Positions 10,309 to 51,978 of a stretch of 64,000 nt of DNA are shown one piece after another. Both the position numbers and the translations under genes were made by a program. This stretch comes from Candidatus Gastranaerophilales bacterium (GTDB lineage Bacteria; Cyanobacteriota; Vampirovibrionia; Gastranaerophilales; Gastranaerophilaceae), in assembly GCA_944324255.1 (NCBI GenBank), contig CALUVM010000009.1, forward strand, positions 211-64,210. Reading direction: 5' to 3'. The notes beneath the pieces were generated by a model. That model saw only the letters and a list, made by a program, of their open reading frames with translations. It was not told where the DNA came from and searched no databases. Each line of letters begins with the position of its first letter. Within the stretch, counting starts at the first letter, position 1.

Positions 10309-10325
10309 CTCATCTCTTTTTCTAA

Positions 10326-10334
10326 ATTATACCA
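10326..10334 (-). promoter_or_regulatory. extended -10 promoter TGGTATAAT for the mla-like operon
   Basis: attatacca on the plus strand equals TGGTATAAT on the minus strand, 17 nt upstream of the ATG at 10308. Confidence 0.5.
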
Positions 10335-10429
10335 GAGATTAAATTTATTTAAAATATTTTTATCTCAAATATGATAAATAAATATGTTTATGATAGACTG
10401 TAATAGTGGACATCAGTGAGAGAGGTTGA

Positions 10430-28601: not shown

Positions 28602-30632
28602 CTACTTACCCATAGCGTAGGTTTTAACAACTGTTACAGATCCGTCAACGTTCTTACGAACACCTTTATCAATTTCTTCATCAAGGTCAGCTGCGAATGC
28701 TACCGGAGTGTATACTGAGTTTGCATCAATTGCTGCGTTGATTTGATCTCGCTGAAGGTTATTCAGGATTTTAACGTTATCGTGATCTTCCGGATTTGGA
28801 AGCGGTTCAGGGTCAGGACCAGGCTGGTCGCCGCCGTTTACTACAAGGTATGTAGTGTTGTTTGGTCTGCCGTTTTCGTTAACGTTTAATCCGTTTTCAC
28901 CGTTTGCCATATCATAAGTGATTTCTGTATTACCGTTGATTACAATTTCTTGAGCGTCACGAATATTTGTGTATTTCAAGTCATAATCTCTGCTTGCTGT
29001 TTCAACTGTTAAGTTATCAGTTTTATTGCCTACTCTGATTTGATTTGCGTGAACATCGTTACCTGTGATTTTCATATCATTTTCAGCTTCCAAGTAAACT
29101 TTATCGGCATTAACACCTGTTACATCAAGATTTGATTTAGAACCGATAGCTGCATATTGTGTATCAAGGTTTGTGATTGTACCGCCATCAACATACAGAA
29201 GAGATAATGTTGTCGGAGGAAGTAATTTATATCCTTCCATTGTTCCGATGAATTTTTCAGTTGAATCTAAACCGCCGACATATCCGTCTGCAATGAAGCT
29301 GTATTCATCGGCAGTCAAGGTTGCTTTTCCGTCAGTGATAATATTTAAAGTGCCTGATTCAAGAGCAATTGCTTGAGCTGTAGTATCAACCGATATACCG
29401 ATGCTGCCTTCTCTTGCCAAAGCATCAATAGTACCGTCTACATTTAAACTGCCTGCTGCGATTTGTCCTTCTTCAAAGTTATAACCGCCGATATGAATAT
29501 TATGAATTGAATCAATGTTTAAATTACCACCGATATTATTTTTTCCAACAAGGTGAACGTAATGTTTAATATGGTCATTTACACCTGTTGTAGTTTTTAA
29601 AGATACATTTCCGCCGGTTGTTAAATTACCGACTTCCATAACACCGCCGGCATTTGCTAATTTAACATCGCCGTCAACTTTTGCATTTGCTAAATACACC
29701 ATGCTGCCGAGGTTGTTGCCGGATTCCGCATCAATAATATTTGTTGAAGCGCTTCCTGTTGTTTTAGCATCCAAATTGCCTTTGACTTCAAAAACATTTT
29801 TATCAGGATTTGAGTAATTAAGTGCAATAACACCCTGTGAATCAATCGTTAAATCACCATTGATAGTTCCGCCGTTAACAACTTTAACAATATCTTCACC
29901 TGATAATATGTAAACATCCCCGTTAACACTTACGGTTTCTAATTTAACACCGGCATTAGCAATTTTTTGACCGTCAGCCGGAGCAACTAAATAGTCCTGA
30001 CCGTTTCTTGTAACGAGTTTGAATCCTTGTTCAGCTGTAATAATTGATTTTATAGCATTAACAGAAGGTGAAAGAATATTGAATTCACCGCCTACTGAAA
30101 AATCTGAATTCTGAATTGTTACACCGTTAATTGCAGCTTGATTTAATTTTGAAATATCTAACTGACCGTTAACATAGTTTACGCCGAGAGCTTGAGTTGT
30201 TAACATCAAGTCGCCGGCTGTAGTAAATTTAGCCCCGTCAAATAACATACCGTTCGGGTTAGATATAATTAATTTTGCAATACCATCGTTAGCATTAATA
30301 TTACCATAAATCTGAGACATCCCGCCGTTAACAGTATTAACAACCGTTAAATCGTTTGCTCCGTTTACGGCATTAAAGTTTAAACTTTCACCATTATTAA
30401 TATTTAAGGAACCCCAGTTAACATGAGCATTACCATTAAAATTAAGATCTACATTACCTGTACCGGCACCGTTCATACCGGCAAATCCGCCCTGTGTCGA
30501 GTCAATAACCGCACCGCCGATTCCGCCGCCTAAACCTGTATCCATTGCAGCAAATGAAATCTGCATTGTAGCGAACATTGTACATAGCGCGATGGCTGAT
30601 AGTTTTTTTGCAAAATTTCTCATAATTTTCAA
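28602..30632 (-). CDS. filamentous-haemagglutinin-type exoprotein with an N-terminal TPS (haemagglutination activity) domain
   Basis: Signal peptide, then NFNGNAHVNWGSLNINNGESLNFN ... LIISNPNGMLFDGAKF (NPNG motif). Followed by beta-helix-like G/N/T-rich repeats and a Pro-rich linker near the C-terminus. Confidence 0.75.
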   Translation of the reverse strand: MKIMRNFAKKLSAIALCTMFATMQISFAAMDTGLGGGIGGAVIDSTQGGFAGMNGAGTGNVDLNFNGNAHVNWGSLNINNGESLNFNAVNGANDLTVVNTVNGGMSQIYGNINANDGIAKLIISNPNGMLFDGAKFTTAGDLMLTTQALGVNYVNGQLDISKLNQAAINGVTIQNSDFSVGGEFNILSPSVNAIKSIITAEQGFKLVTRNGQDYLVAPADGQKIANAGVKLETVSVNGDVYILSGEDIVKVVNGGTINGDLTIDSQGVIALNYSNPDKNVFEVKGNLDAKTTGSASTNIIDAESGNNLGSMVYLANAKVDGDVKLANAGGVMEVGNLTTGGNVSLKTTTGVNDHIKHYVHLVGKNNIGGNLNIDSIHNIHIGGYNFEEGQIAAGSLNVDGTIDALAREGSIGISVDTTAQAIALESGTLNIITDGKATLTADEYSFIADGYVGGLDSTEKFIGTMEGYKLLPPTTLSLLYVDGGTITNLDTQYAAIGSKSNLDVTGVNADKVYLEAENDMKITGNDVHANQIRVGNKTDNLTVETASRDYDLKYTNIRDAQEIVINGNTEITYDMANGENGLNVNENGRPNNTTYLVVNGGDQPGPDPEPLPNPEDHDNVKILNNLQRDQINAAIDANSVYTPVAFAADLDEEIDKGVRKNVDGSVTVVKTYAMGK

Positions 30633-35077: not shown

Positions 35078-35258
35078 CATAATCCCTGCTCTATACAGAG
35101 TATTTTTAAAAATTTTCTACACTAAATGGATGATTTTTCATTTTTATCATAATAAATTTACAGCTCCCTAATATATAATGATAGTAGGAATATTGACTTC
35201 AAAAAAAAGATTATTAAAAACCATATTAACAACAAATACTAAATAGGAGAATAAGTCT

Positions 35259-36845
35259 ATGGGAATGGCAGCATCTCAAGCCAGATACTTAGCTCTGGTT
35301 GCTAGAAAATCCAATTGCGAATATGAAGGACAGCAAATTAACCAGGCACGGACTGTGCTTTCTAATCAAAGTGCAAATCTGTTTAACCAGATGTTAGGAT
35401 TGTCAGTACCTGTACCTCCTAGTACTCAAGATTATACAAAAGTACAATACTCATATTCAGATGGGTCAAATGATTCAGTTATAGACAGCTGGCAGCAATT
35501 ATCCAGTGCTGATCCTGATTACAACTATGTAGTAACTCATTACTACTATACAGACCGGTATACCGGTTCCATGAAAAGATTATCAGACCCGCAAGTCCAA
35601 TTCTCCGGCGGGACAAATGCAACCATTGCGCAAATTACAGCTGCTCAAAACCTTGTTACACAAACAAAGCAAGCTTATGAAGATGCCGTAGCTGCACGTC
35701 AGGATATGGAAGCTCAAGCAGCAACACTGTCAAATTATACAGACAGAACAACGTATACCGGCATTAACGAAAGCACCTATAATGCCGAAACAGATACATA
35801 TTCATTCAGAACAAGAGATATGACCGCAGGTGAATACCATAACTATACCGGCTATAATTCTCTTGACCCTGATGATCAAGCTTTGGTGCTTGCAGGTATT
35901 CAAAGGCTTATTGATGAAGGCGCACTGGATTTAGATCCAGAAAATCCTGACTTAACAGAAATTTATTATGATGCTGAAACAGGTGACATTGCATTCAGCT
36001 CTGATCTTTCAAGCCTTTATGGCGGCACGAGCGGCGGTTCGCAAACAATATTACCGGTGCTTCATCTAACCGGAGCTCAGTCTATTGGCAATATAGCTAA
36101 TGAATATGATGACCAGATAGATGCCCTTAGAGAAGCTGAAGAGACAGCCAAAGGCGCTTATGATGCAGCCGTATTTGATTATGAATCTTTACAGCGTCCT
36201 ACTTATATCGGAAACAGCGAGTTGACATTGCTGACTTCTTTAACAAAAGATCAGGAAGCTGAAATAAGGCAGGTTGTCGCAGATTTAAAAGAACAGGGCA
36301 TTGATGCCGATATTGTAAACTGCTACAGCGAGGATGGCGGATATCAGGGCGGTATTTATTCATTCCAGCTTAACGGTACAACTTATTATACGACATATCA
36401 AGACCTGTTAAATTCATACTCAAGCGGAACGGGAAATAATCATATTGACGGACAGGCAAAATTGAATTATTACAACGCCAGCTATGTTTCTACAAGAATA
36501 GAAGAAACAGAAAAAGCACTTTTAGAAACTGACGGAAACGGCAGATTCACAAGTGTTCGCTTTGAAAATGATTCTGTAACTTATACCTTAAATATGGAAA
36601 CGGTTACTGATGAAGATGCATATCAGGATGCAATGAACCAGTATTACTATGATAATGCTGTGTATGATAAAACCGTACAAGATATTAATGCACAAACTTC
36701 ATTAATTCAACAACAAGACTTACAACTTGAATTAAGACTTAAACAGCTTGATACAGAACAAAGCGCACTGTCTACAGAAATGGAAGCTGTTAAGAAAGTT
36801 GTTGATGATAACGTTGAAAGTTCATTTAAAACCTTTAACGGATAG
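35259..36845 (+). CDS. hypothetical 528-aa protein with conserved N- and C-terminal helices and a Tyr/Thr/Asp-rich variable middle; no signal peptide
   Basis: Strong SD aggaga. Both termini resemble the 109-aa ORF at 38363. No known family recognised. Confidence 0.7.
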   Translation: MGMAASQARYLALVARKSNCEYEGQQINQARTVLSNQSANLFNQMLGLSVPVPPSTQDYTKVQYSYSDGSNDSVIDSWQQLSSADPDYNYVVTHYYYTDRYTGSMKRLSDPQVQFSGGTNATIAQITAAQNLVTQTKQAYEDAVAARQDMEAQAATLSNYTDRTTYTGINESTYNAETDTYSFRTRDMTAGEYHNYTGYNSLDPDDQALVLAGIQRLIDEGALDLDPENPDLTEIYYDAETGDIAFSSDLSSLYGGTSGGSQTILPVLHLTGAQSIGNIANEYDDQIDALREAEETAKGAYDAAVFDYESLQRPTYIGNSELTLLTSLTKDQEAEIRQVVADLKEQGIDADIVNCYSEDGGYQGGIYSFQLNGTTYYTTYQDLLNSYSSGTGNNHIDGQAKLNYYNASYVSTRIEETEKALLETDGNGRFTSVRFENDSVTYTLNMETVTDEDAYQDAMNQYYYDNAVYDKTVQDINAQTSLIQQQDLQLELRLKQLDTEQSALSTEMEAVKKVVDDNVESSFKTFNG

Positions 36846-36883
36846 TCTGATTAAATTTATTAGAAAATGTATAAGAGGCTACT

Positions 36884-37729
36884 ATGGCATACAAAAACGA
36901 CGGATACCTTGTAATAGCAAACAGATATGGCTCGGCATCATCAGATGCAAAGTCTATGCTGTATGAAACTTATGACAGGTTAAGGGATTTAACTGTTGCA
37001 GGTTCTGTTGGAACAGGTACGGGATTTGAAGCTGCAGGCGGCTTTTTATATCAATTAGCCAGTTTATTTGCACCGTCAGCCTTTATGACAACTTTAGGCG
37101 GAACAACCGCAATGAACATTCCGGGAACATCATACTGGTCGCAATATACAGGCGGCACAGGCGGACTTACCGGCTCTTACTCATCTTTCGGGGTTAACAG
37201 TCTTGGTAATTACTCTGGTTTCCCGAGCGGCTATGCTTCAAGCCTTAGCGGATATACAACAGGCGGAGCATCCTCAATTGGAGATTTACTGTACGGTTAT
37301 GGTTCTTCTTCCGGAACAGCTACCGGATATGCTTCAGGAATCGGAAGTATTGCAGACATTGCAAGCGCTGCAGCATACGGAGTAGGAACCGCAAACGGTT
37401 ACGGAGTCGGTGCTGCTAACATTTTAATGCCATTAGCAGGACTTGTTTCAGGATGGGGCGGAATTATGACAGCAGCTGCGCCTTATTTAGGTGAATTTGG
37501 TCTGCCGGCAGTTGTTATGGGAAACTTAATGCAAGGAACTACCTCTGCTGCCTTATCTGCATACCAATCTGTTTCTCAAAATGTACTATCAAATGCTGAT
37601 ACAATTCTCTCTCAAAAAGTTGCAAACATTGAAACTGTTGTAAAAATGCTTGATACTCAAAGTGATATTGTAAGAAAAATGTTAAAAGACGATCTGGAAA
37701 GCAACAGTCAGGAAATTGAAAACTTATAA
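36884..37729 (+). CDS. hypothetical Gly/Ser/Tyr/Thr low-complexity protein with a hydrophobic Gly-rich segment and a helical C-terminus
   Basis: SD aagagg, 38 nt after the previous gene. SYG/GYG-type repeats across about residues 60-200. Confidence 0.65.
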   Translation: MAYKNDGYLVIANRYGSASSDAKSMLYETYDRLRDLTVAGSVGTGTGFEAAGGFLYQLASLFAPSAFMTTLGGTTAMNIPGTSYWSQYTGGTGGLTGSYSSFGVNSLGNYSGFPSGYASSLSGYTTGGASSIGDLLYGYGSSSGTATGYASGIGSIADIASAAAYGVGTANGYGVGAANILMPLAGLVSGWGGIMTAAAPYLGEFGLPAVVMGNLMQGTTSAALSAYQSVSQNVLSNADTILSQKVANIETVVKMLDTQSDIVRKMLKDDLESNSQEIENL

Positions 37730-38071
37730 TTCTAATACCATGCAAGGACGTACTTTTTTTAGAATAATGATTGACAATCTGCTTGTTAACAATGCTTTAT
37801 GCCGGGCATTGTCCGCTTTCGTAAATTTTTGTAACGAACAGAGGTATTATAATAGAAAAGAATTAAAGTTTTTGAAAAAAATGCCGTTAAATAATATTAA
37901 AGATAATAGTGTTTATTCAAAGAAGTTTATCTTTAATAATACAAAACATTCCGGAGCAAGCTTTAAATAAGATGTTAACATTTGTAACAAAAAAACTGAA
38001 TATACGGCAATTATTAACGTTCACATGTTTTATTATACATGTAGGTTCTTTATGTATAGGAGAAAAAGCCT

Positions 38072-38341
38072 ATGCGTGAGGAAATACAAACAAATATAAA
38101 ACGGTTAGTGAACTTTATGAATTTTGCCCGCTCGTTTTTTGTACGGAAAAATCCATTCAAGGCACTGGCTGTAAGTTTAATTTCAAGCCTCAAGGAAATG
38201 CTCACAATCAGACAAAAGCTGAAAATGGCAAAGTACAGGGTTAACTATCACAAGCACCAGCTGTATAAAATGGAAAGCTTGATAGCAGAAAGTAATGAAC
38301 ACACATTCCTGAAAGGTAAGAACTTAAACGAAACCAGATAA
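38072..38341 (+). CDS. hypothetical small basic helical protein (89 aa)
   Basis: SD aggaga 8 nt upstream. First gene of a tight three-gene unit. Confidence 0.5.
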   Translation: MREEIQTNIKRLVNFMNFARSFFVRKNPFKALAVSLISSLKEMLTIRQKLKMAKYRVNYHKHQLYKMESLIAESNEHTFLKGKNLNETR

Positions 38342-38362
38342 CCAAACCGGAAGGAAAAGTGT

Positions 38363-38692
38363 ATGGGATTAATTACATCAACATATAGAATGATGTACCT
38401 GACAGCCTACAAGCTGACTTTGGAATCAAAGCTTCAGTGGATAGCAACTGCAAAAATGGAATTGGTTGCATCTTCCGATGAAATTTTGTCATTAGGAAAC
38501 GATCTTGATCCGGACAATCCGGCTGTTAAGCAACTGGAAGCCAGACGAGAACGTTTAACTGTACTGGAGAAAAAATTAGATATTCAAATGCAGGAATACC
38601 AGACAAGATTAGACATGGTTAATGCAGAACTCCAATCCTGTAAGAGTGCAGTAGATTCAAGTATACAAAACTCTTTCAGCTATCATTTTTAG
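38363..38692 (+). CDS. hypothetical 109-aa helical-hairpin protein, a minimal paralog of the 528-aa protein
   Basis: By eye, 12 of the first 34 residues are identical to the 528-aa protein without gaps. Shared C-terminal K..VD..(V/I)(E/Q).SF motif. Confidence 0.65.
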   Translation: MGLITSTYRMMYLTAYKLTLESKLQWIATAKMELVASSDEILSLGNDLDPDNPAVKQLEARRERLTVLEKKLDIQMQEYQTRLDMVNAELQSCKSAVDSSIQNSFSYHF

Positions 38693-38699
38693 GAAATAA

Positions 38700-39920
38700 A
38701 TGAAAATTAATGTCATTAATAACTATAGCTTGACTCACAACAATAGAGAAACAAGCTTTCATAAGACCGCAGCTAATCCGGTGTGCAATAATTCGAGAAA
38801 TGAAGCACACCAGAAAGTATTTTCAAGCCATTTAGGTTTTCGGGGCGGAATACCTTTAACCAGTCTGGTTAATGATTATAAGTGGTTTATTAATAATGAC
38901 AAACTTCCGGCAATTAATTCTTTTTTGAAAATTGAAGCCCCTAAAGAATCTTTAAACCAATTATTAAAATATATTTTATCTAATAATGATACAAGCTATG
39001 AGTTTATTGACAGTCTTGTCAACCAGCCAAGAAATATTTCACAAATTTACAGACAACTCAATGAAAAATTACCTTTTGATGCAGATATTCTTGATATGTA
39101 TTCTCCAAATAGTTTGTACTTAAAAGCTTATGAAAAATATATGGATGAACGTTATAAAAATGCTTCATCCGTATCAGAGCTACTAAAAATTCGTCCCGAC
39201 TGGAGAGAAGACGTTCTGCTGAACAAACACAGAGAACTGTATCATAATAATGATTTTGAATTAGGATTCGTTCCTGATAGTATCGGAGCAGAAAACTTTA
39301 ATCAACTGGCAGAGCATCTGCGTAAGTATTGTACAATAGGATTTAAAGTCCAAAAAGAGATTCCGGATTTAAATATTAACGGTAAATGCTTCAAATTTAA
39401 ACAATATATTGACGGAAAATCAGATAAAAATGTATTTAGAATTGATACTCCGGATGGAGAAAAATTCGTTATCAAGATGGCTTCTCCTTCTCAAAACGGA
39501 TTAAATCTTGCAGCCGGATTAGGAACTCTGAGTCTGGTTGATACTTATTTAACACAAAATAAATGCAGAAATGCTGCTCCATTGAGATACTATAACAAAA
39601 ACAACAATATAGCTATATATGATCATATTAATCACAGTACAGTTGAACAAATACGAACATCAATAAGTGATTTATCCGCTAAAATGCCTGATTTTAAAAA
39701 TCTCGGGCTTGAAATTAATGATACTATCGGGGCTAATAATTATTTCAAACTGGAACCGTCACAAAAAGCAATGGAATCGGCTTATGATTTTAACTATGGA
39801 ATTTTGCATGATGAAGTTGTATCGGTTGATAATGACCATTCCACATATAGCCAGATTCTGTTTCCGATAATTGATAAATATCACAAATACCTGCCGAACG
39901 AAATGCACATGTTCTTCTAA
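38700..39920 (+). CDS. hypothetical 406-aa protein; the C-terminal half has possible protein-kinase-like fold signatures
   Basis: GKSDKNVFRIDTPDGEKFVIKM (G-loop/VAIK-like, K259), INDTIGANN (D341-x4-N346), VSVDND (D377). Motifs read by eye only. Confidence 0.6.
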   Translation: MKINVINNYSLTHNNRETSFHKTAANPVCNNSRNEAHQKVFSSHLGFRGGIPLTSLVNDYKWFINNDKLPAINSFLKIEAPKESLNQLLKYILSNNDTSYEFIDSLVNQPRNISQIYRQLNEKLPFDADILDMYSPNSLYLKAYEKYMDERYKNASSVSELLKIRPDWREDVLLNKHRELYHNNDFELGFVPDSIGAENFNQLAEHLRKYCTIGFKVQKEIPDLNINGKCFKFKQYIDGKSDKNVFRIDTPDGEKFVIKMASPSQNGLNLAAGLGTLSLVDTYLTQNKCRNAAPLRYYNKNNNIAIYDHINHSTVEQIRTSISDLSAKMPDFKNLGLEINDTIGANNYFKLEPSQKAMESAYDFNYGILHDEVVSVDNDHSTYSQILFPIIDKYHKYLPNEMHMFF

Positions 39921-42156: not shown

Positions 42157-43482
42157 TTATGCATATTGAGTAATAATTGTATTAAAAGCTGAAGCTACCT
42201 GCGGGTTGACATCTTTATCTTTTTTAATTATTTGACCAACCTCAAACAGAAGTTCCTGCTGACCCTGCTCGGTTTTTAATTTATTATTAACGTTGATCTG
42301 GTTAGCTATATCATCTCCGACAAGAGCTTTTGTAACTTTTCCGGTGAGCCACATACCAATTGCACCGCCTACCATACCGATAACACCGCCTATTGCAGTT
42401 CCTACACCAGGGCCGAAGAATGTTCCTATTTTAGCACCCAGAGCACCTGCTGCCCAGATACCGGCTGCTTCACCTGCTGCCCAACCTGCTGCGTTGCCTA
42501 AAGCTTTTACGGTTGTCTGTCCTAATTGTTTCATACCATAGTTCTGGGAAGCTTTACCTGCTGCCTTGTCTTCTTTATCTTTTGCAAATGCAGTTTTAAT
42601 ATTACCCATACCGAAGAAGAGTTCTATTCCTGCAAACAGAAGAGATGCGCCAATACCGCCTTTTTTCAAAGCCTGTTTGAATGTCGGGTTAAGCGGCGTT
42701 TTAAGAAGACCTTTAGTATTATTAGCAATTGTTGTTTTATCTGCTATTCTTGAAGCTACTGAAGGAAGTTCATTTTTTGAACCGGTGAAGAAGTTTTTAA
42801 CACCGTTAGTGAATTTGAACCAGCCGCCGTTATTTACATAAGCATGTTTTAATGTTTCGGAAGCTTTTGCTATTTCATCAATATTATTTGATTTTAAAGC
42901 TCGTTCCATTATTTCTTTTAATTGTTTATATTCCTCTGCTGAATATTTCTTTCTGAACAATCCAAGCTTCCAGTATTTACGGCTGGATGCTTTATGCATC
43001 TGGAAATATGCTTCCTGCATTACCTGATAGTTCTTATCCCAGAGAGCTTTAATATTCGGATCTTTGAACATTTTATGAACATCTCCGCTTCCTATTAAAG
43101 AGTTTATCGGGTGTGCTAAATAGCGGGGATTATTCATAACAGCACCCATAACACCCATGCCCATAATCGCACTGCCCAGGCTTTCAGAAGGGCTTAAAGA
43201 CTTAGCGTAATAATTTGCAAGAGTCTGCATATCTTTATTGTTTTGAAGGTTTGCGGAGGTTTGTTCTGCCTGTGCATTTGCTAATGCTGCTGAATTATAA
43301 TCATAAGCTGAATTATAATACATATCAGGATTAAGATATCCGTATGCATTAGCTAAAGAGTCATAAGAATTATAAGGTACGCCTGTATAATTATTAAAAT
43401 AATTCGGAACGGACATATTCAATCCAGGTGCTCCGTAAAGCATTGTTTCCATATTTAAGAGTGATTGAATTGGTGCTACCAT
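42157..43482 (-). CDS. hypothetical 441-aa protein: Tyr/Asn-rich N-terminus, helical middle, C-terminal glycine-zipper membrane segment
   Basis: NYFNNYTGVPYNSYDSLANAYGYLNPDMYYNSAYDYN, and GWAAGEAAGIWAAGALGAKIGTFFGPGVGTAIGGVIGMVGGAIGMWL. No signal peptide. Confidence 0.65.
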   Translation of the reverse strand: MVAPIQSLLNMETMLYGAPGLNMSVPNYFNNYTGVPYNSYDSLANAYGYLNPDMYYNSAYDYNSAALANAQAEQTSANLQNNKDMQTLANYYAKSLSPSESLGSAIMGMGVMGAVMNNPRYLAHPINSLIGSGDVHKMFKDPNIKALWDKNYQVMQEAYFQMHKASSRKYWKLGLFRKKYSAEEYKQLKEIMERALKSNNIDEIAKASETLKHAYVNNGGWFKFTNGVKNFFTGSKNELPSVASRIADKTTIANNTKGLLKTPLNPTFKQALKKGGIGASLLFAGIELFFGMGNIKTAFAKDKEDKAAGKASQNYGMKQLGQTTVKALGNAAGWAAGEAAGIWAAGALGAKIGTFFGPGVGTAIGGVIGMVGGAIGMWLTGKVTKALVGDDIANQINVNNKLKTEQGQQELLFEVGQIIKKDKDVNPQVASAFNTIITQYA

Positions 43483-43629: not shown

Positions 43630-46600
43630 ATGAAAGTTGAAAGTATACATTCCAAAGCTAATATTAAATTCGGAAGCAAAAGAACCGCAAGAAATATAAC
43701 AGAGCAGCTGGCTAAAAATAATCAATATTCTTTAACAGAGCCTAATCAAAGACAAATAACAAACTCAATAAAAGAACTCGCAAAGGTTCCGGGAGAAAAA
43801 AATGTAAACTTTCTTCTTGATACAGCATCAAAAGTTAAATATTCTACGAATATAAAACTTAAAAACGCTCCCAAACACAATTGGAAGAATTTGCTTCTTG
43901 CTGCTGCAACGACTGCCGCACTTATTACTCCGGCTATATTAAAAGACTCTTTTAATAAAAAGATAAATGAGATTCAAAATAATAAAAATTTGAGCAATGA
44001 AGAAAAAGAAATCTTAAACCTTAGAAAGAATCTTTTAAAATCAGCCGACCTGAAACAGATAAAAAAAGAAACCGTAGGTTCTATTAAAGATTTTGAAGCC
44101 AATCTTGATTATTTTATAGTATCAAGTGAAACAACAACAGAACATAAAAAGTATGTGCTTGAAAAGCTCAATTATTTTATGAGTGATGATTATCAAATTA
44201 ATCCTCAATTAAAAGATAAAAAGTCTATTGCTCTGGCTGAAATAGTTAACGATATGGCTCTTAACTCACCGGAAGAAAACATCCCTAATATTAAAGCTGT
44301 TAACCAAAAACAACACGGTATGTGTGCCGCAATTTCAATTGTCAGGAAAAAACTTGCATATGAAGATAAGCCTAATTACATAGACGCAATCCTTTCCGAG
44401 CTGGATTCAACCCCTTATCTTACTGTCTATGACAGAAATAAACTTTTTAGCAAAGAAAAAATACAGGTTCAAAAAGTTCCGGTAGACTTTGAAACAGCTC
44501 TTGCAAACGGATACAGGATTATTGATGCTTCAACCATGCACTGGATGCAAGTCGCTCAAATGTCAGGTTCAAGCAGTCTTGCGTATGATGAATACAGACC
44601 GTTTGATAAAGAAAATTTTGATGTAAATAAAGATGCTTTTTATAATGTCGGATTTGATGATCCAAAGCTCCAAAAGACCCAAAATTATTTTCAGGCGCTA
44701 AAAAAAGCTGAATCTGTACTCGCTGATTTAAAAGCTAATTATTTAAAAAAAGAAGAAATTAATAGTGATAAAAGAAATCGCTTTAACAAAAGAATTTCAA
44801 CTCTCCGTCAGATAAACGAAAGTCTGAGCAGAAATATCGCCTCACTAGACACCGGTCTGTCTGCCAATGAAATCCAGACTTTATTATCCGGTATTTTAAA
44901 ACTTAACAAACACTTTTCAGATAAAATTAACCCTGACGACAAATTTTCATATATTCCAAATGAAGAAACATCTGTCAAAAAAAATAAAATTAAAGGATAT
45001 ATAATTGAAAACAGTTCAATAAAAGATATTCCCGATGAAATTCTGGACAAAATTTATGATTTTGTTGAATTTCATTCATCTCTTCAAGGCAATCCGGCGA
45101 ACAAAAATAAAGCTATTACAGAAGCAAGAAGTTTATATAATGCAGCAGCAGCTTTCAGATACCAGATGATAAAAGGTTTAGATGAAGAAACTATGCTTGC
45201 GGGTTTTATCCGCAGTGAAGGTTTGAAGAATAAAGAATCTCTTCTGCTTGATACAGTTGATACGGCGATGTATAAGATTGACACCGACTCAGAGGATTCA
45301 AATGCTATAATAGAAAACCTTCTGACTGTTTTTGACCTTAAAAACCCTTCTAAAGAAAATGTTCTGGCATTACTTGGCGAATTAAAAGATTCCATAAATA
45401 CTATTCTTACTGATGAACTTGATTCAATATATGAAAAATTAACAATCCCCGGGGGAAGACGGGGTGCTTTAATTACCCAGCTTGAAGGCATAAAAAACCA
45501 GGCTCTCGCCGGAGATAAAGAATCCGGCTATGCACTGAAAGAAATTTTAAATATTAAAAAGCATTCAGATATTGAAGAAGCTGTCAGAGATTTGCAAACA
45601 GATATCTCTAATTGTGATGACGAAAGTTTTTTAGAAATATTTGACAATTTACACAATGTTTCACAAATTGAAAATATTGAAAATACATTCAACAATCTTA
45701 TTCAGGCAATGAACGGGGAAAATCAGCAAGAAATTATTTCAAGATTTGCGGAAGTTAATAATATAGCAGAAGGTCTTAGCGAAGATTTATTAAATCAAAT
45801 ACTTAATGAAATCGGAACTCAAATACAAACATACAAAAACTTTATTGAGAACTTGTATAAAGTTTTTACTGTTACGGATAAAGACGGAGAGATTATTATT
45901 TCACCTAACCCTAAAGATATAATTATAAAAAAATGGGAAAATGAAAAAACTATTATCCCTGCAAAAGACCTGAAAGAACTGCAAGAACACTTTACTAAAA
46001 TATCAAAAGACCGTTCGCAGGATGAATTTTCTACAAGGCAGGGAAAATTGCACGACAAAAGTCTGTATCAATTTTCCAGCAATGAAAAAGCTACGCTTAA
46101 TGAAATTAAAAAGAACATCAACCCGATGTTTTCCTATATTCAAAAACAAATACCTGCAGTACAGAAAGAATTAAAAGAACCTTTAGAAGAACTCAAACGC
46201 ATAGTAGGCTTACATAACGGAAGCTACTGGGTTAGAGAAGAAGGGCATTCCGGCTTGACTTCTGAAGAAGAAGTTAGGGTTCTTGAATACATGACAGGAC
46301 GCCCGCATTATGAAACTACAGACTTAAGGTTTGCTATGGAAAAAATTAAGAATTCCCCGTATTCAGGAATTTCCAGCTCTTCTGTCTATGATGATGCAAT
46401 GGGATGGCACGCTCAATATATAGCAGATATAAGACCGGTGAAAATAAAGAATAAGGAAGGCAAGGAAGAAGAAAAAGAAGTCTTGTTCCACGACAACAGC
46501 TGGGGAGCCTCCGAATACGAAAACACCTGGGTTGATTCAAACGGACTTACAAGAACAGACTACAGCGATAATAGAGGAGGCTCACTCGGGTATATTACAA

Positions 46601-49401
46601 ATAATAAATTCCAGAACGGAAACTTCACCGACAGAATTTTGAATGATATGGTTTTAAAAGAAAAACCTGACCTGACCAGAAATAAAATATACAAAAAATT
46701 AAAACATGTCGATAACAACCTTAATAACCTTCCTCAAATGTCAGGCATTATTCTGGAAGGATATTCTCCGAATACAAAATCAATTGCAGCAGAAATCCAC
46801 GATGCAATGTTTATTCCGTCACTTTCATTGATGGGGAAATTGGAAAAACTTGCAAAAGAACTTTCTCCGGAAGAAGTAAAAAATTTAATCAAACAAACCG
46901 AAACCGCTGCTACAGGATGGGAAAAAACTTATAATAACCTTCAAAAGAGATTGTATTCACCTTTTGAGAAGAAAATTCAAACAAAAGAAGATTATGACAA
47001 ACTGCCTGATAATGACTATTTAAAAGTTGTGCTTGAAAAAGTCGCACTTAAATGGAATTATCAGATAAACGGGCTTGAAAATGAACTTGCAAAAGTAAAA
47101 AATACCAAAGACTTATCAAAGTTCCGTTCTGCACAAAAAAACAGAGCTATTAATAGTTTTAAATATGCCTTTTTTAAGGATATTAACGCTATAGATTTTG
47201 TCTGCAACGAGTTTGGAGATAGCGAATACGATAAAATCGATAACATTCTTGATAAATACAACATTAAATTGACCAATAAAGAACTTTATTCAATCGTGAC
47301 AAATTTCGAGCTGGGAACGGAAGATTTTGACGGAAGTGTTAAAAATACTGTTAAACTATTCCTTGACAGTATCAAATCCGATTTGGATAAAGTAGTTGCT
47401 AATGAAGAAGCTAAAAAAGAAATCCTTAATATCTACAAAGAGTTCTTTGAAAAAACAGCTTATTTTAATAACAAAGACATTGCTGACGGAAACCTCAAAA
47501 ATATAATTAATTTTATTGATCGTGAATATTCTCCTAATGATGATGAAGAATTAGTAAATATATACAGAAAACTTCAAGACATGACCACAGAGGAATTCAA
47601 AAAAGAAGTTTTATCCAAGGTTAATAATAAAGATCTCGGAATTAAAAACTATACGGGCTATGACATTTTGAAAAAACTGCAGCGTTATGAAAGCAGTGCC
47701 GATACAGCTTTTATGAATACCATTTATTATGATACATTCTACGCTAACTACGGACAAACCGATTTCAAAAAAGCTTATCGTTACAAACGCTTCGCAAGAG
47801 AAGCTATGTATAATAATAAATATAATGTCAGCTCAATATACAGAGAAATGGCTTATGATTTATCATATCTAACCCTGCCTAAACTCTTTAACAAATATAA
47901 AGACCGCAATCTTGATAAATACGGCGCCTATCCAGCATATCCAAAACTTGAATACTTAAATGAAGATTCTCTCGGATACTCATATAACTCCTTCATAGAC
48001 TCCCTTGACTATAAATACGAAGCTATTAAAGCTTTGCAAGACCAGATAAAATCTTATGAACTTGCAAATCAGCTGTTAAATTATTTAAAGAAATATGATA
48101 ACAGCAAACCCGTTACCGGAGTTCTATACAGGAATTTAAACCTAATCTTCGGCAGCCTCATTTTGAATGCCGATGACAATGACCCGGTAATGGAACCGCT
48201 GATTGATGCGGCGGAAAAGGCAATGGAACTGGGAAAAGGATCTTTATTTAATGAATATAAGCCTTATATTAATACAATAATATCCACAATAGAAGAACTT
48301 AAAAATACAACATCAAAAGAAGCTCTGGAAAATGCTCTCAGAGTTGAAAAAAATTCGCTGCACGAAACTATAAAAGTTTTTGCAAAGAGCCTTATTCAAG
48401 AAAAATACAGAGATGATGTAATTTCTATTGCAAATAAATATATACAGGCACTTATTAAATACAAAAACGAAGATATAGAAACCCTGCCTGACGAACTTTA
48501 TGAGGCTTTCTCTAAATATCATATTTTAAGAAACCCGAAAGAACTGTTGGAAGCTTATATTCTGTCAGTTGCAAAAGATTCTCCTGACAGCAAGTATCTT
48601 GAAACCTACAGGACACTCATGACAAGGGGGCTGCAATATGCACAGCTGGCAAATATTCAAGATATATTAATGGGAGCAGTTTCAAAAGGGGTGGAAACCA
48701 GTGTAAAAGATATGTTTAAAAACTACAAGCTTCACAATGCCTATGGTGAAGAAACATCTATGAACTCTAAGGATATTCTTGCACAGATGATTCATAAGCT
48801 CATCATTGATAACGAAAGAGAAACCGCTCTTATGTTCATTGACAAACTTGGCATAGGAGAAGATTATATCAAATATCTTTCAGAATCGATAGACTTTGAT
48901 AATCTAAAGAATATACTCAAAGAAGCTTTTGATACCGCTAACAACTTCAACGCCTTTACACAGGAATCGGAAACTTATCTTGACGAAGCCAGAGAACTTT
49001 CTATTGAAGAAGAAAATTATGAACAAATTCTTGACCTTGCTAAAAACAAAATACTCAGAACAGCAAAAAAACATAAAATTAACAACAAAGAAATTCTCCC
49101 GCTTATCAATGCATTAGATGCCATTAAAAAGGTCTATGCAGACCATCCGGACGGAAACAGACAAGTTCTGTTTGATTCAGTTATGATGAGTGCCAAAGAA
49201 CAAACAACAAGTCTTGCAACCACTAAGGTTAATAATTTAAATCTTATTCTAAACTCAAATGCAACTATTCTTGACCTTGTAAATCAACTTCTTCTTAAAG
49301 AAGATTCCGAGGCTAATAAGCTCAGAACCGAAATGAATGAAAAATTTAAGAAACTGATTGAATACAAGAGCAGTCTTTCTAATTTGCAACAAGAAGAATA
49401 A
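43630..49401 (+). CDS. giant 1923-aa mostly helical protein with a putative split papain-like (clan CA) cysteine peptidase core
   Basis: SD aagagg. NQKQHGMCAAISIV (Q226/C232), GWHAQYIADI (H927), FHDNSWGAS...GGSLGYI (D955/N956). Hydrophobic segment at about residues 85-104. Confidence 0.75.
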   Translation: MKVESIHSKANIKFGSKRTARNITEQLAKNNQYSLTEPNQRQITNSIKELAKVPGEKNVNFLLDTASKVKYSTNIKLKNAPKHNWKNLLLAAATTAALITPAILKDSFNKKINEIQNNKNLSNEEKEILNLRKNLLKSADLKQIKKETVGSIKDFEANLDYFIVSSETTTEHKKYVLEKLNYFMSDDYQINPQLKDKKSIALAEIVNDMALNSPEENIPNIKAVNQKQHGMCAAISIVRKKLAYEDKPNYIDAILSELDSTPYLTVYDRNKLFSKEKIQVQKVPVDFETALANGYRIIDASTMHWMQVAQMSGSSSLAYDEYRPFDKENFDVNKDAFYNVGFDDPKLQKTQNYFQALKKAESVLADLKANYLKKEEINSDKRNRFNKRISTLRQINESLSRNIASLDTGLSANEIQTLLSGILKLNKHFSDKINPDDKFSYIPNEETSVKKNKIKGYIIENSSIKDIPDEILDKIYDFVEFHSSLQGNPANKNKAITEARSLYNAAAAFRYQMIKGLDEETMLAGFIRSEGLKNKESLLLDTVDTAMYKIDTDSEDSNAIIENLLTVFDLKNPSKENVLALLGELKDSINTILTDELDSIYEKLTIPGGRRGALITQLEGIKNQALAGDKESGYALKEILNIKKHSDIEEAVRDLQTDISNCDDESFLEIFDNLHNVSQIENIENTFNNLIQAMNGENQQEIISRFAEVNNIAEGLSEDLLNQILNEIGTQIQTYKNFIENLYKVFTVTDKDGEIIISPNPKDIIIKKWENEKTIIPAKDLKELQEHFTKISKDRSQDEFSTRQGKLHDKSLYQFSSNEKATLNEIKKNINPMFSYIQKQIPAVQKELKEPLEELKRIVGLHNGSYWVREEGHSGLTSEEEVRVLEYMTGRPHYETTDLRFAMEKIKNSPYSGISSSSVYDDAMGWHAQYIADIRPVKIKNKEGKEEEKEVLFHDNSWGASEYENTWVDSNGLTRTDYSDNRGGSLGYITNNKFQNGNFTDRILNDMVLKEKPDLTRNKIYKKLKHVDNNLNNLPQMSGIILEGYSPNTKSIAAEIHDAMFIPSLSLMGKLEKLAKELSPEEVKNLIKQTETAATGWEKTYNNLQKRLYSPFEKKIQTKEDYDKLPDNDYLKVVLEKVALKWNYQINGLENELAKVKNTKDLSKFRSAQKNRAINSFKYAFFKDINAIDFVCNEFGDSEYDKIDNILDKYNIKLTNKELYSIVTNFELGTEDFDGSVKNTVKLFLDSIKSDLDKVVANEEAKKEILNIYKEFFEKTAYFNNKDIADGNLKNIINFIDREYSPNDDEELVNIYRKLQDMTTEEFKKEVLSKVNNKDLGIKNYTGYDILKKLQRYESSADTAFMNTIYYDTFYANYGQTDFKKAYRYKRFAREAMYNNKYNVSSIYREMAYDLSYLTLPKLFNKYKDRNLDKYGAYPAYPKLEYLNEDSLGYSYNSFIDSLDYKYEAIKALQDQIKSYELANQLLNYLKKYDNSKPVTGVLYRNLNLIFGSLILNADDNDPVMEPLIDAAEKAMELGKGSLFNEYKPYINTIISTIEELKNTTSKEALENALRVEKNSLHETIKVFAKSLIQEKYRDDVISIANKYIQALIKYKNEDIETLPDELYEAFSKYHILRNPKELLEAYILSVAKDSPDSKYLETYRTLMTRGLQYAQLANIQDILMGAVSKGVETSVKDMFKNYKLHNAYGEETSMNSKDILAQMIHKLIIDNERETALMFIDKLGIGEDYIKYLSESIDFDNLKNILKEAFDTANNFNAFTQESETYLDEARELSIEEENYEQILDLAKNKILRTAKKHKINNKEILPLINALDAIKKVYADHPDGNRQVLFDSVMMSAKEQTTSLATTKVNNLNLILNSNATILDLVNQLLLKEDSEANKLRTEMNEKFKKLIEYKSSLSNLQQEE

Positions 49402-49418: not shown

Positions 49419-50243
49419 ATGGCAGATTTAGTGGAAAAACTTAAAGAAATAGGCTTCAATTCATATGAAGCAAAGGTGTATATTGCCCTTCTTAAAAAAT
49501 ATCCTATGACAGGCTATGAAACATCAAAATTAGCCAATATCCCGCAAGCCAGAACTTATGACACCCTGAAATCTCTTGAAGAAAAAGGAGTTGTTGCTGC
49601 TGCAAATACAAAACCTGTAACCTATACACCTCTTAAGCCTAAGCAATTGCTGTCAAGCTACCAGCGGAAAATGAACTCCACTATAAACTATCTGGAGAAG
49701 CACCTGCCGGAAGTTAAAGACAGTTATAATGAGCCAATTATAACTATTTCAGGAAAACAAAATATTCAAAATAAAATCCTCGAAGTTATCCAGAATGCTA
49801 AGCGAGAAATTTATATGGAAATCTGGTCACAGGATTTTAAGATTTTTGAACAGGAACTTTTAAACGCATATAACAGAAATGTTGAAATAAGAATTGTAGG
49901 ATATGATAACTTCTCTTCAAAATTCGGTCTTATTTTTGAACACGCTTTTGCAAGAGATATAGAAATGTCCCTCGGCGGCAGGATGGTCATCATAGCCGCT
50001 GATGATTCTGAAGGTATTGTCGGTAAGATTTCATCTTTTAAAAATGACTTATTTGATACAAATATAATCTGGACTCAAAATAAAAGTATCGTTTTTATTA
50101 TAAAAGAATTCATTGTTCATGATATGTACTTAATTGATGTAGAAGAAAACCTCGTTGAGCAGATGAAATACATCTACGGCAAAGGCTTTAAGCGGCTGAA
50201 AGATAAAGTTCTGGGGGCGAATTCACTTTATATGATACATTAA
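49419..50243 (+). CDS. TrmB-family transcriptional regulator
   Basis: The N-terminal winged helix LKEIGFNSYEAKVYIALLKKYPMTGYETSKLANIPQARTYDTLKSLEEKGVV is a typical TrmB HTH. Confidence 0.8.
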   Translation: MADLVEKLKEIGFNSYEAKVYIALLKKYPMTGYETSKLANIPQARTYDTLKSLEEKGVVAAANTKPVTYTPLKPKQLLSSYQRKMNSTINYLEKHLPEVKDSYNEPIITISGKQNIQNKILEVIQNAKREIYMEIWSQDFKIFEQELLNAYNRNVEIRIVGYDNFSSKFGLIFEHAFARDIEMSLGGRMVIIAADDSEGIVGKISSFKNDLFDTNIIWTQNKSIVFIIKEFIVHDMYLIDVEENLVEQMKYIYGKGFKRLKDKVLGANSLYMIH

Positions 50244-51910: not shown

Positions 51911-51978
51911 CTCTCTTCCTTCTAATAATTTATAAGTATCATATTTTAGGCAAAAAGTAAAGGATACCGGAGTCAAAA

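Follow-up and report, generated by a model that had tools for sequence, protein, structure and literature searches.

A conserved Gastranaerophilales operon with a sigma-28-type promoter encodes two paralogous helical-hairpin proteins, possible flagellin-like subunits

Introduction

In a 64-kb stretch of DNA (the window) from a member of the Gastranaerophilales, non-photosynthetic cyanobacteria of the gut, two genes raise a question. Their products, of 528 (A) and 109 (B) amino acids, had been described in a first-pass annotation as paralogues that share both termini, with a design like that of flagellins but without being flagellins. Are the two proteins truly related, and what might such a family do in these bacteria? 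Both reading frames exist exactly as first given, and they are the outer genes of a five-gene operon, A-C-D-E-B. The Gastranaerophilales are widespread in the gut and have, to our knowledge, no cultured representative. Most of them keep a puzzling flagellar remnant (export gate, ATPase and rod) that has no known product. The non-motile members retain FlhA, FlhB, FliP, FliR, FliI, FliJ, FliE and FlgB/C/F/G and are without FliC, FliD, FlgK/L, FlgD/E, FliF/G/M/N and MotAB (Soo 2014 supplementary table; Di Rienzi 2013; preprint), and complete flagella have been reported in only about 25% of the order's genomes (preprint). A secretion role has been postulated for the retained export gate, ATPase and rod genes, and none of these sources names a substrate (Soo 2014; Di Rienzi 2013; preprint).

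Results

A and B have both terminal helices in common

Over their first 34 residues, A and B align ungapped with 12 identities, as had been counted by eye. Without Met1 this pairing scores 31 (BLOSUM62; z = 5.1, p ~ 1e-5 in 100,000 shuffles), and B's score against the N terminus of A is the highest among the 66 open reading frames of the window, the runner-up standing at -4. The C termini are also alike, scoring 51 over 40 residues with a one-residue offset (z = 5.8). Two other coiled-coil C termini in the window reach 44 and 36 in this comparison; hence the C-terminal match, taken alone, is partly compositional. Full-length A and B gave weak local matches in BLASTP and hhalign (E ~ 1e-3 to 1e-2), yet these were placed correctly, B72-105 on A490-523 (P = 0.004) and B1-38 on A1-38 (P = 0.013).

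Perhaps the two proteins are unrelated, and their likeness is due to chance or to generic coiled-coil composition? The weakness of the full-length comparisons would fit this, as would the coiled-coil C termini elsewhere in the window that nearly match B's score. However, when a profile of the A termini (first 50 and last 62 residues of 170 sequences, middle removed) was aligned with a B profile, the match spanned 105 columns from end to end, interrupted by a single 4-residue gap (probability 94.7%, P = 5.7e-8, score 47.0). Column-shuffled controls (n = 150) scored 12.3 ± 2.6 with a maximum of 21.5, and a reversed control scored 14.0. Both matches are anchored exactly at the protein ends, and the anchored N-terminal score is an outlier among all open reading frames of the window. 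In addition, A and B are strictly co-operonic in 76 species, and intermediate sequences exist in a third class of the family, A'. The termini-only alignment and its shuffled controls rule out unrelated proteins, a reading to which we assign next to no probability. We conclude that A and B are paralogues.

A carries a variable domain at the tip of the hairpin

Gene B (38363..38692, forward strand) encodes the family's bare two-helix hairpin, as judged from the profile alignment, its AlphaFold2 model and its homologues. The model (pLDDT 91.6, pTM 0.73) has helices at residues 3-46 and 53-105 and places the turn at 47-52, the site of the LGNDLDPDNP motif, in keeping with the helix-turn-helix first read from the sequence. 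The best 120 of 357 B homologues are 77-94% identical, and dN/dS is 0.09. B is more conserved than A overall, and its conserved residues fall on the same helix face as those of A.

Gene A (35259..36845, forward strand) encodes a member of the same hairpin family with a large inserted domain. Residues 1-50 (MGMAASQARYLALVARKSNCEYEGQQINQARTVL..., 35259..35408) make up the N-terminal helix module common with B, delimited by conservation, dN/dS and the alignment to B 1-38, while alignments and conservation mark residues 467-528 (...LELRLKQLDTEQSALSTEMEAVKKVVDDNVESSFKTFNG, 36657..36845) as the C-terminal module. Between them, at the tip of the hairpin, lies the inserted domain (residues 51-466, 35409..36656), bounded by conservation, dN/dS and the model. 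AlphaFold2 predicts helices at 2-17 and 24-45, alpha/beta domains at 56-450 and a long helix at 452-525, so that about 415 residues separate the helices equivalent to those of B. The alpha/beta model of the inserted domain has a pLDDT of 80-97; residues 1-36, with pLDDT below 50, are helical, and their position relative to the C-terminal helix is not confidently set. The profile alignment and both models agree with the proposal that A's extra residues sit where B has its turn. Foldseek searches of PDB and BFVD with the A model returned nothing below E = 0.6; the highest-ranking entries were MacA and viral fusion proteins, discarded because their TM-scores were at most 0.14.

Among 82 A orthologues, column conservation reaches 0.91-0.97 over residues 1-48 and 0.83-0.89 over residues 457-528. 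It falls to 0.36-0.52 at residues 121-312, which hold about 20 indel hot spots; within the insert, roughly residues 116-310 are hypervariable and 311-450 better conserved. Together with middles that are often unrelated between clusters (see below), this profile upholds the description of conserved termini around a hypervariable middle. Is the middle under positive selection? dN/dS is 0.02 at the termini and averages 0.086 in the variable region, with dS near saturation, and positive selection is thus unsupported. We conclude that the variable region is under relaxed purifying selection, diversifying selection not being demonstrated. The insert is acidic, with a composition high in S/T/N/Q/G/Y. 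A Kyte-Doolittle scan found no hydrophobic segment in either A or B. Hence neither has a signal peptide or a transmembrane helix, and the earlier claim on signal peptides holds for both.

A large family with invariant ends

Clustering at 50% identity divides the A family into at least 2,057 groups, and wherever their source is named it is a MAG of the Gastranaerophilales or Melainabacteria. Members have nearly invariant termini, and the middle that these enclose spans about 100 to about 950 residues and often bears no relation from one member to the next. The 150 best clusters listed vary in length between 126 and 1074 amino acids, and the members examined at full length (215-1074 amino acids) are alike at both ends only. 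In other genera the middles, of 100-950 residues, are unrelated. Short A variants are orthologues, sitting in the same operon, and some genomes carry the third class, A', with its intermediate sequences. These comparisons place A and B in a superfamily known to date from MAGs of Gastranaerophilales and Melainabacteria alone. What its members have in common is an antiparallel hairpin of two helices, built from the N-terminal ~50 and the C-terminal ~60 residues, while the insert at the hairpin tip of A is swapped and resized from genus to genus.

The first-pass annotation had recognized no known family, and our searches bear this out: Pfam, NCBIfam and PHROGs gave no match for any of A to E, the A and B profiles found nothing meaningful among PDB sequences (E <= 10), and Foldseek likewise offered no relative. 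Ten long-insert A variants were searched against Pfam, and one alone gave a match, calpain-like and sub-threshold. Another observation, made by eye, is a set of GGxGxD-like (RTX-like) repeats in the insert of one variant. The repeats, the acidic S/T/N/Q/G/Y-rich insert and the weak calpain-like match suggest extracellular display.

The operon A-C-D-E-B

The gene order A-C-D-E-B is kept in 76-82 of 82 species, between flanking genes that differ. Gene C (36884..37729, forward strand, as are all that follow) lies directly 3' of A in 80 of the 82 loci and encodes 281 Gly/Ser/Thr/Tyr-rich amino acids (dN/dS 0.07); residues 177-212 are hydrophobic, and a helix lies at the C terminus. Gene D (37740..37970, 76 amino acids) is small and poorly conserved; its frame is open in 79 of 82 loci (dN/dS 0.30). 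Gene E (38072..38341), present in 79 of 82 loci, encodes a basic, very highly conserved protein of 89 amino acids (dN/dS 0.06) that by inspection is probably helical. All five genes are under purifying selection, as judged by dN/dS. We considered C, D and E as further hairpin paralogues; only the C-terminal helix of C gave a match to A, which was borderline (hhalign P = 0.004) and is not claimed. A 406-amino-acid gene that starts 7 nt past B (38700..39920) is found in only 8 of 82 loci and is a lineage-specific addition outside the core operon.

What surrounds the operon? Neither the operon nor the rest of the window contains a flagellar or type III gene, and type III genes, those of an injectisome cluster included, are likewise missing from the 82 operon neighborhoods. 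Nor is an ABC transporter, membrane-fusion protein or TolC gene linked to it in the 82 contexts. We reject a phage or prophage origin: the operon lies among housekeeping genes, A to E have no PHROGs match, the A model has no BFVD fold match, and no relative was found in IMG/VR contigs. Genes for further surface proteins, such as a TPS-domain protein and a porin, also lie in the window. Elsewhere, canonical flagellin genes recur close to the family, with at least five different arrangements in which the distance is about 6 kb or less.

A sigma-28-type promoter precedes E-B

Inside the 3' part of D, 181 nt before the start codon of E, lies an exact match to the sigma-28 (FliA)-type promoter consensus (PMC2859248; PMC12784957), TAAAGTTT-N11-GCCGTTAA (37864..37890, forward strand). 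It is the only match in the 64-kb window, even with 3 mismatches, where 0.05 matches would be expected at up to 1 mismatch. The exact form TAAAGTTT-N11-GCCG(A/T)TAA occurs once per locus, at one fixed position, in 66 of 84 loci; with mismatches allowed, 70 of 73 loci have the box at E-B, and about 70 species keep it there. The boxes are ~100% conserved, the spacer and flanks 50-80%, and the most conserved peptide of D, ELKFLKKMPL, is the one that the boxes encode. Judged by this consensus match, E-B would stand behind a canonical sigma-28 promoter and would depend on sigma-28 in vivo.

Other members of the family have boxes of their own. In two loci (L083 and L084) a second perfect sigma-28 box lies 5' of a tandem extra A copy, and sigma-28-like boxes lie 5' of A' in four (L052, L060, L085 and L087). 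In the closest relative (L006), a canonical flagellin is preceded by TAAAGTTC-N11-GCCGTTTT; tblastn of this flagellin against the window found no relative. The conserved element 5' of A (35172..35220, forward strand) is different: it consists of TATATAAT (35172-35179), TTGACT (35193-35198), a 16-nt spacer and TAAAAA (35215-35220). In 80 of 83 loci, conservation of TTGACTTT and ATTAAA exceeds 90%, and these stretches mostly lie about 60-70 nt ahead of the A start. In most lineages this element looks like a putative sigma-70-type promoter, not a sigma-28 promoter.

Discussion

What might A and B do? We lean, tentatively and with somewhat less than even confidence, toward lineage-specific, flagellin-like subunits that would co-assemble at the cell surface under sigma-28 control, possibly after export by a reduced flagellar type III apparatus. 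The sigma-28 promoter of E-B and the extra paralogues with boxes of their own point to membership of the late flagellar regulon. The invariant hairpins of A and B would bundle their helices to make the core of an oligomer or filament, with the variable insert of A facing outward, as in flagellin and other axial proteins. Without a signal peptide, the subunits might exit via the export gate and rod of the flagellar type III system, parts that Gastranaerophilales retain even after loss of flagellin, hook and motor genes. C (Gly-rich and partly hydrophobic), D and E might act as membrane anchor, chaperone or regulator. The A/B family may thus be what the leftover flagellar export machinery builds or secretes. 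Several observations count against a flagellin-like, exported product: in Pfam, PDB profiles and Foldseek, flagellin, rod, hook, HAP, FliD and needle proteins all failed to match by sequence or by fold; the element 5' of A is sigma-70-like in most lineages; the window is without flagellar or type III genes; the N-terminal helix of A is unplaced in the model; and dN/dS in the variable region is 0.086. A bolder version, which we think unlikely, is that the operon supplies the missing distal part of the reduced apparatus of gut Melainabacteria. Hairpins of the B type would build a core, similar to a needle or filament, on top of the rod and export gate that were kept, and A would add swappable surface domains. 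This would be a third type III-secretion-dependent surface structure, next to the injectisome needle and the flagellar filament, derived from a flagellum that lost motility.

Could A and B instead stay inside the cell? They might join in a four-helix bundle, as a heterodimer or lattice in the cytoplasm or at a membrane, and act as an intracellular coiled-coil scaffold or regulator in a process under sigma-28 control such as chemotaxis, motility control or cell separation, with the middle of A as a weakly constrained adaptor and no export. We consider this possible, if on the doubtful side. The missing signal peptides, an operon free of secretion genes and purifying selection throughout A, its middle included, all agree with it; the hydrophobic Gly-rich segment of C could tether such a complex to the inner membrane. 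Sigma-28 regulons also include many proteins that are cytoplasmic or otherwise not exported, among them autolysins and proteins of chemotaxis and the motor. However, swaps of the whole middle (100-950 residues) beside invariant termini are unusual for scaffolds and typical of displayed domains. The acidic S/T/N/Y-rich insert and the RTX-like repeats seen by eye in one variant fit a scaffold poorly, as does the recurrence of canonical flagellin genes near family members.

Export by another route, for example type I secretion of A as a surface adhesin or effector that uses its conserved C terminus, would leave the sigma-28 link regulatory only. That C terminus, the lack of an N-terminal signal peptide, the variant with GGxGxD-like repeats and the presence of other surface proteins in the window are compatible with such a route. 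Still, none of the 82 contexts links the operon to the ABC transporter, membrane-fusion protein or TolC gene it calls for, and a C-terminal signal leaves both the invariant N terminus and the bare-hairpin paralogue B unexplained; we find it decidedly improbable. We rate only a little higher, and still as improbable, a non-structural B that mimics the A hairpin, pairs with the terminal helices of A and keeps A monomeric or export-competent, as a dedicated chaperone or assembly inhibitor. B is exactly the termini of A and nothing more, is more conserved than A overall, and lies at the operon end, co-transcribed behind the late (sigma-28) promoter. Yet its conserved residues lie on the same helix face as those of A, which also fits co-polymerization. 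Moreover, the flagellar and type III chaperones known to us (FliS, FlgN and FliT; PscE/G for needles) are not paralogues of their own substrates, which counts against B as a chaperone.

The preferred reading, flagellin-like co-assembling subunits, bears on the flagellar remnant of these bacteria. The A/B family is large and wholly unannotated, and it combines an axial-protein building plan with a late-gene promoter consensus and retention in at least 76 of the 82 species analyzed. This makes the family a concrete and testable candidate for the product, or an exported cargo, of that remnant. If the inserts are surface displayed, they would be prime candidates for interaction with host or phage, and also for use in typing strains. 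Even if cytoplasmic, the family is a clean natural case of domain insertion at a helical hairpin tip.

How do A and B compare with known systems? Needle and filament proteins of the injectisome (PrgI, MxiH, YscF, EspA) are, like B, two-helix hairpins of about 100 residues; the AlphaFold2 model puts B in the 80-100-residue range of that type, a hairpin alone not being diagnostic. They have a P-(S/D)-(D/N)-P turn and an IIQNFR end, which the DPDNP turn and conserved IQNSF end of B resemble, and the needle/EspA or needle/tip relation parallels that of B to the larger A with its added domain. However, A and B gave no Pfam match to the needle family (PF09392) at E <= 1, and the B profile found among PDB sequences at E <= 10 six unrelated chains and no needle protein. 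The resemblance, having failed the sequence tests, is a lead and not a demonstrated kinship.

Flagellin and the other axial proteins (FliC, FlgK, FlgL, FliD and FlgE, with FliE and FlgB as minimal forms) offer the closer parallel. Like A and B, they are paralogues with common terminal helices and inserts of very different size, and they have no signal peptide. Like A, they pair highly conserved termini with a hypervariable middle; in A, the terminal helices enclose a hypervariable central domain of surface type. The enzyme-like insert of one A variant brings proteolytic flagellins to mind. In contrast, no solved flagellar protein is matched by sequence profile or fold. At Pfam E <= 1, hmmscan found no Flagellin_N (PF00669) or Flagellin_C (PF00700) match in A or B. 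Pfam at this threshold and NCBIfam likewise gave no Flg_bb_rod (PF00460) or Flg_bbr_C (PF06429) match, Pfam gave no FliD model, and the A profile retrieved no flagellin from PDB sequences at E <= 10. None of the proteins encoded by C, D and E resembles a flagellar protein, and the family occurs in many species, although complete flagella are reported in only about 25% of the order's genomes. Nevertheless, flagellin genes are often near family members, and the operon has, upstream of E-B, a match to the consensus of sigma-28 (late flagellar) promoters, while A itself follows a sigma-70-like element in most lineages. Because this putative sigma-28 promoter is conserved, the flagellin analogy is stronger than the first-pass annotation could know. 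Finally, the reduced flagellar gene sets, not adjacent to the operon, occur in the same organisms, the non-motile Gastranaerophilales. A sigma-28-linked family without signal peptides would be a plausible cargo, or distal structure, of that relic apparatus.

Shared termini of A and B

The genes for A (35259-36845, + strand, 528 aa), which carries a large insert, and for its bare-hairpin paralogue B (38363-38692, + strand, 109 aa) lie exactly where the first-pass annotation placed them, at the lengths it gave. It had also reported that the first 34 residues of the two proteins align without gaps, with 12 identities. We confirmed this match against shuffled sequences (z=5.1, p~1e-5), and among the 66 ORFs of the window A-B was by far the best anchored N-terminal pair. 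The C-terminal match described at the same time stood only in part: it reached z=5.8 with a one-residue offset, but the coiled-coil C-termini of two further window ORFs scored almost equally. Hence, the C-terminal end alone is not convincing as evidence of homology.

Full-length comparison of A with B was weak both by BLASTP and by profile-profile alignment, yet the two top local hhalign matches (82 A and 66 B sequences) were precisely the two anchored ends, B72-105/A490-523 and B1-38/A1-38. We built a termini-only profile from 170 A-family sequences by joining the first 50 residues to the last 62 and discarding the middle. Its alignment to B ran end to end, covering 105 columns and broken by a lone 4-residue gap at the turn (probability 94.7%, P=5.7e-8, score 47.0). 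Column-shuffled profiles scored 12.3±2.6 (n=150, maximum 21.5) and the reversed profile 14.0, while swapping the halves recovered one half alone; the profile was designed with the hypothesis already in view, and these three controls guard against that. AlphaFold2 predicted B confidently as a two-helix hairpin (helices 3-46 and 53-105; pLDDT 91.6, pTM 0.73). In the model of A, helices 2-17 and 24-45 precede well-folded alpha/beta domains (56-450) and a single 74-residue helix (452-525), with a mean pLDDT of 80.5 and values below 50 for residues 1-36. The two families are bridged by divergent B sequences (MGVVSTIFRTQMLVARQHDLE...) and by A' (MGMAASQVRLLQLTSRKN... ...IESVRDKNVETNFSIFS), which forms a third class of paralogues. 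We conclude that chance similarity is excluded and that B corresponds to the termini of A minus the middle, as had been proposed.

Invariant termini and exchangeable inserts

Close homologues of A number more than 4,145. An exhaustive search placed at least 2,057 clusters (50% identity) in its family at E<=1e-3, 1,091 of them at E<=1e-10, and none of these clusters carries a name or a Pfam domain. Where sources are named, they are 'Cyanobacteria bacterium SIG28/SIG30', 'Candidatus Gastranaerophilales' or 'Candidatus Spyradomonas', that is, gut or rumen non-photosynthetic Melainabacteria/Vampirovibrionia. IMG/VR viral contigs yielded no relatives. Many representatives align to the A profile only at about 1-95/120 and 400-527, with different sequence in between, and members read at full length range from 215 to 1074 aa. 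Both ends follow almost invariant consensus sequences, MGMAASQAR(Y/F)L.L.ARK.N.E(Y/F)EGQQ(I/V)NQ.R..L.N.S..L(F/Y)N at the N-terminus and D..AY..AMN.Y.Y......Y.K.I.DINAKT..IQ..D..LELRLKQLDTEQ.A...E..AV.KV(I/V)..N.E..FKTF at the C-terminus.

The first-pass description of conserved ends around a hypervariable middle was borne out in 82 orthologues: column conservation was 0.91-0.97 over residues 1-48 and 0.83-0.89 over 457-528, as against 0.36-0.52 over 121-312, where some 20 indel hot spots occur. The dN/dS of A was 0.02 at each terminus and 0.086 in the variable part, with dS near saturation in many of the pairs used. The middle is thus under relaxed yet still purifying selection, and its large differences are due to indels and domain replacement, not to measurable positive selection. 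Over the first 48 codons of A (35259-35402) median dS was about half that elsewhere (0.78 versus 1.2-1.6), which, for a short segment and non-independent pairs, hints at an RNA-level constraint.

In another genus, the same operon contains a 326-aa variant; short and long forms of A are therefore orthologues with swapped inserts. The insert of A in the window is acidic (D+E 0.16, K+R 0.05) and 48% S/T/N/Q/G/Y. That of a 1074-aa metagenomic variant, P0279, has GGxGxD-like repeats, spotted by eye, and matches calpain (Peptidase_C2) below threshold; by analogy with proteolytic flagellins, the variable region may here display an enzyme domain. Some lineages carry a second, 341-aa tandem copy of A (locus L083:8748-9773 and 10001-10981). 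Class A' comprises 303 proteins of 474-540 aa, encoded mostly immediately upstream of ffh (e.g., L052:10050-11516 and L085:10001-11446). A, A' and B thus form a hairpin superfamily in which B is bare and A and A' bear inserts, the inserts being exchangeable between invariant termini. Only A and B represent it in the window.

A fixed five-gene operon

Between A and B lie C (36884-37729, 281 aa, Gly/Ser/Thr/Tyr-rich), the small D (37740-37970, 76 aa) and E (38072-38341, 89 aa), all on the + strand. The order A-C-D-E-B on a single strand was fixed across 82 loci of species-representative genomes, with A present in 82, C in 80, D and E in 79 each and B in 76; the missing genes look like contig ends. 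The flanking genes vary by lineage, and the 406-aa gene that follows B (38700-39920, + strand) is present in only 8 of the 82 loci. All five operon genes are under purifying selection (dN/dS 0.07 for C, 0.30 for D, 0.06 for E and 0.09 for B). C opens with a conserved segment and ends in a helix, and its Gly/Ser/Tyr-rich region contains a hydrophobic stretch (177-212). The resemblance of the C-terminal helix to that of A is weak (P=0.004), and we do not claim homology.

A conserved putative sigma-28-type promoter within the operon

Inspection of upstream regions revealed an element that the first-pass annotation had not noticed. Positions 37864-37890, upstream of E-B, read TAAAGTTT-TTGAAAAAAAT-GCCGTTAA, and the sigma-28 (FliA) promoter consensus is TAAAGTTT-N11-GCCGATAA (PMC2859248; PMC12784957). 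This was the sole sigma-28 site in the window (G+C about 35%) even with 3 mismatches allowed; 0.05 matches at <=1 mismatch are expected there by chance. An exact TAAAGTTT-N11-GCCG(A/T)TAA occurred as a single copy at constant position in 66 of 84 loci, and with mismatches permitted the box was found in 70 of 73, mostly 160-190 nt before the E start. The boxes are conserved at about 100% and the spacer and flanks at 50-80%, the signature of a DNA-level element. From consensus and conservation we assign the site as a putative sigma-28-type promoter. It falls within the 3' part of D, and the -35 and -10 boxes encode the best-conserved peptide of that ORF, ELKFLKKMPL. D is open in 79 of 82 species with a dN/dS of 0.30; therefore, some of its apparent protein conservation is promoter conservation.

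Similar boxes accompany other family members. The extra tandem A copy in the lineage of loci L083 and L084 is preceded by a second perfect box, TAAAGTTT-N12-GCCGATAA, and A' in four (L052, L060, L085 and L087) by TAAAGTTT-N11/12-GCCGATAT or GCCGTAA(A/T). The region upstream of A itself bears a different conserved element in most lineages, TATATAAT followed by TTGACTTT...ATTAAA (80 of 83 loci), which may be a promoter or an operator. In the window it spans 35172-35220; it is not a sigma-28 site, and its second part, which here reads TTGACT-N16-TAAAAA (35193-35220), looks sigma-70-like.

Flagellar context

Complete flagellar sets occur in about 25% of Gastranaerophilales genomes, according to the literature. 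Four non-motile members retain FlgB, C, (F), G, FliE, FlhA, FlhB, FliI, FliJ, FliP and FliR and lack FlgD/E/H/I/K/L, FliC/D/F/G/M/N and MotAB (PMC4040986, supplementary table). Of the 82 loci, 7 have a canonical flagellin gene no more than about 6 kb from the operon, arranged in three ways (L006; L070/73/79/80/81; L066); in L085 and L087, Pfam Flagellin_N/C matches place such genes at a distance of 3-6 kb from A'. In L006, the closest relative (A 93% identical), the flagellin gene has a similar sigma-28-like box, TAAAGTTC-N11-GCCGTTTT, upstream. That gene (L006:441-1565) adjoins a beta-lactamase-like gene; at its place the window encodes a 676-aa TPS-domain (filamentous-haemagglutinin-type) protein (28602-30632, - strand), as, apparently, do L003-L005. 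Upstream of the flagellin genes of the rumen lineage (L073, L080, L081, L087 and others) lies a shared conserved block, GGATATGTGATGTATATATAA...GAAAGGTTAGGGAATG, but no sigma-28 box. Hence, flagellin regulation differs among Gastranaerophilales lineages.

We found no flagellin or other flagellar gene in the 64-kb window. It does encode a 580-aa homologue of Maf-type (motility-associated factor) glycosyltransferases (50240-51982, - strand; MptE-like, E=5e-34), syntenic with the operon in L001 and followed by two conserved ORFs (51979-52869 and 52866-53729) that match no family. Its product has a weak Maf_flag10_N match and hits PDB 5MU5 at 3.6e-10, an entry titled 'Uncharacterized protein' that we take to be the Magnetospirillum flagellin glycosyltransferase Maf. 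Since the window lacks a flagellin gene, A is conceivable as the substrate of this enzyme.

Two further neighbors deserve mention. A 441-aa protein (42157-43482, - strand), Tyr/Asn-rich at its N-terminus and with a glycine-zipper region at its C-terminus, weakly matches tail tape-measure PHROGs (E=5e-9); synteny of its gene with the operon was seen in 21 of 82 loci. A 1923-aa protein (43630-49401, + strand) is unmatched in Pfam and NCBIfam; by-eye motifs such as QHGMCAA and HDNSWG suggest a candidate papain-like cysteine peptidase core.

Possible roles of the A/B family

The N-termini of A and B have S6, R9, L13, A15, K17, E21, Q25, I27, A30 and L34 in common, and the C-termini L..L....E...V/A..V....I/V..SF. 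The 3-4 residue spacing of these polar and hydrophobic positions would place them on one helix face, which suggests that the two hairpins pack together as a helical-bundle core. Termini that are near-invariant across the order while inserts have diverged beyond recognition point to packing with several partners, for which flagellin D0 and pilin alpha-1 helices offer a model. The inserts of A would then face outward. As the first-pass annotation had indicated, A and B have no signal peptide, neither containing a hydrophobic segment. Because of this, of the putative late-flagellar promoter and of the export gate and rod that these bacteria retain, export would most economically proceed by the flagellar type III pathway. 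We put forward this whole chain, from common core to export, tentatively, as a possible account.

The main rival keeps A and B inside the cell, as a cytoplasmic or membrane-associated coiled-coil complex within the sigma-28 regulon; we regard this as rather unlikely. B might instead be a chaperone of A that mimics its hairpin, which we consider improbable, and we give still less credence to secretion by another route.

Relation to known families

The earlier failure to recognize a family held on broader searching: A-E were unmatched in Pfam, NCBIfam and PHROGs, A and B in PDB sequence profiles, and Foldseek of the A model against PDB and BFVD returned no known fold. Sequence and fold hallmarks of flagellin, rod/hook/HAP proteins, FliD and needle proteins were each sought in the A/B family and none was found; we therefore do not file it under any of these. 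It is an unannotated family with an architecture of a known kind and, apparently, regulation of a known kind. It resembles flagellin and flagellar axial proteins in its paralogous terminal helices, very unequal inserts, variable middle, absent signal peptide and putative sigma-28 link, and, through B as a bare hairpin, it resembles injectisome needle subunits.
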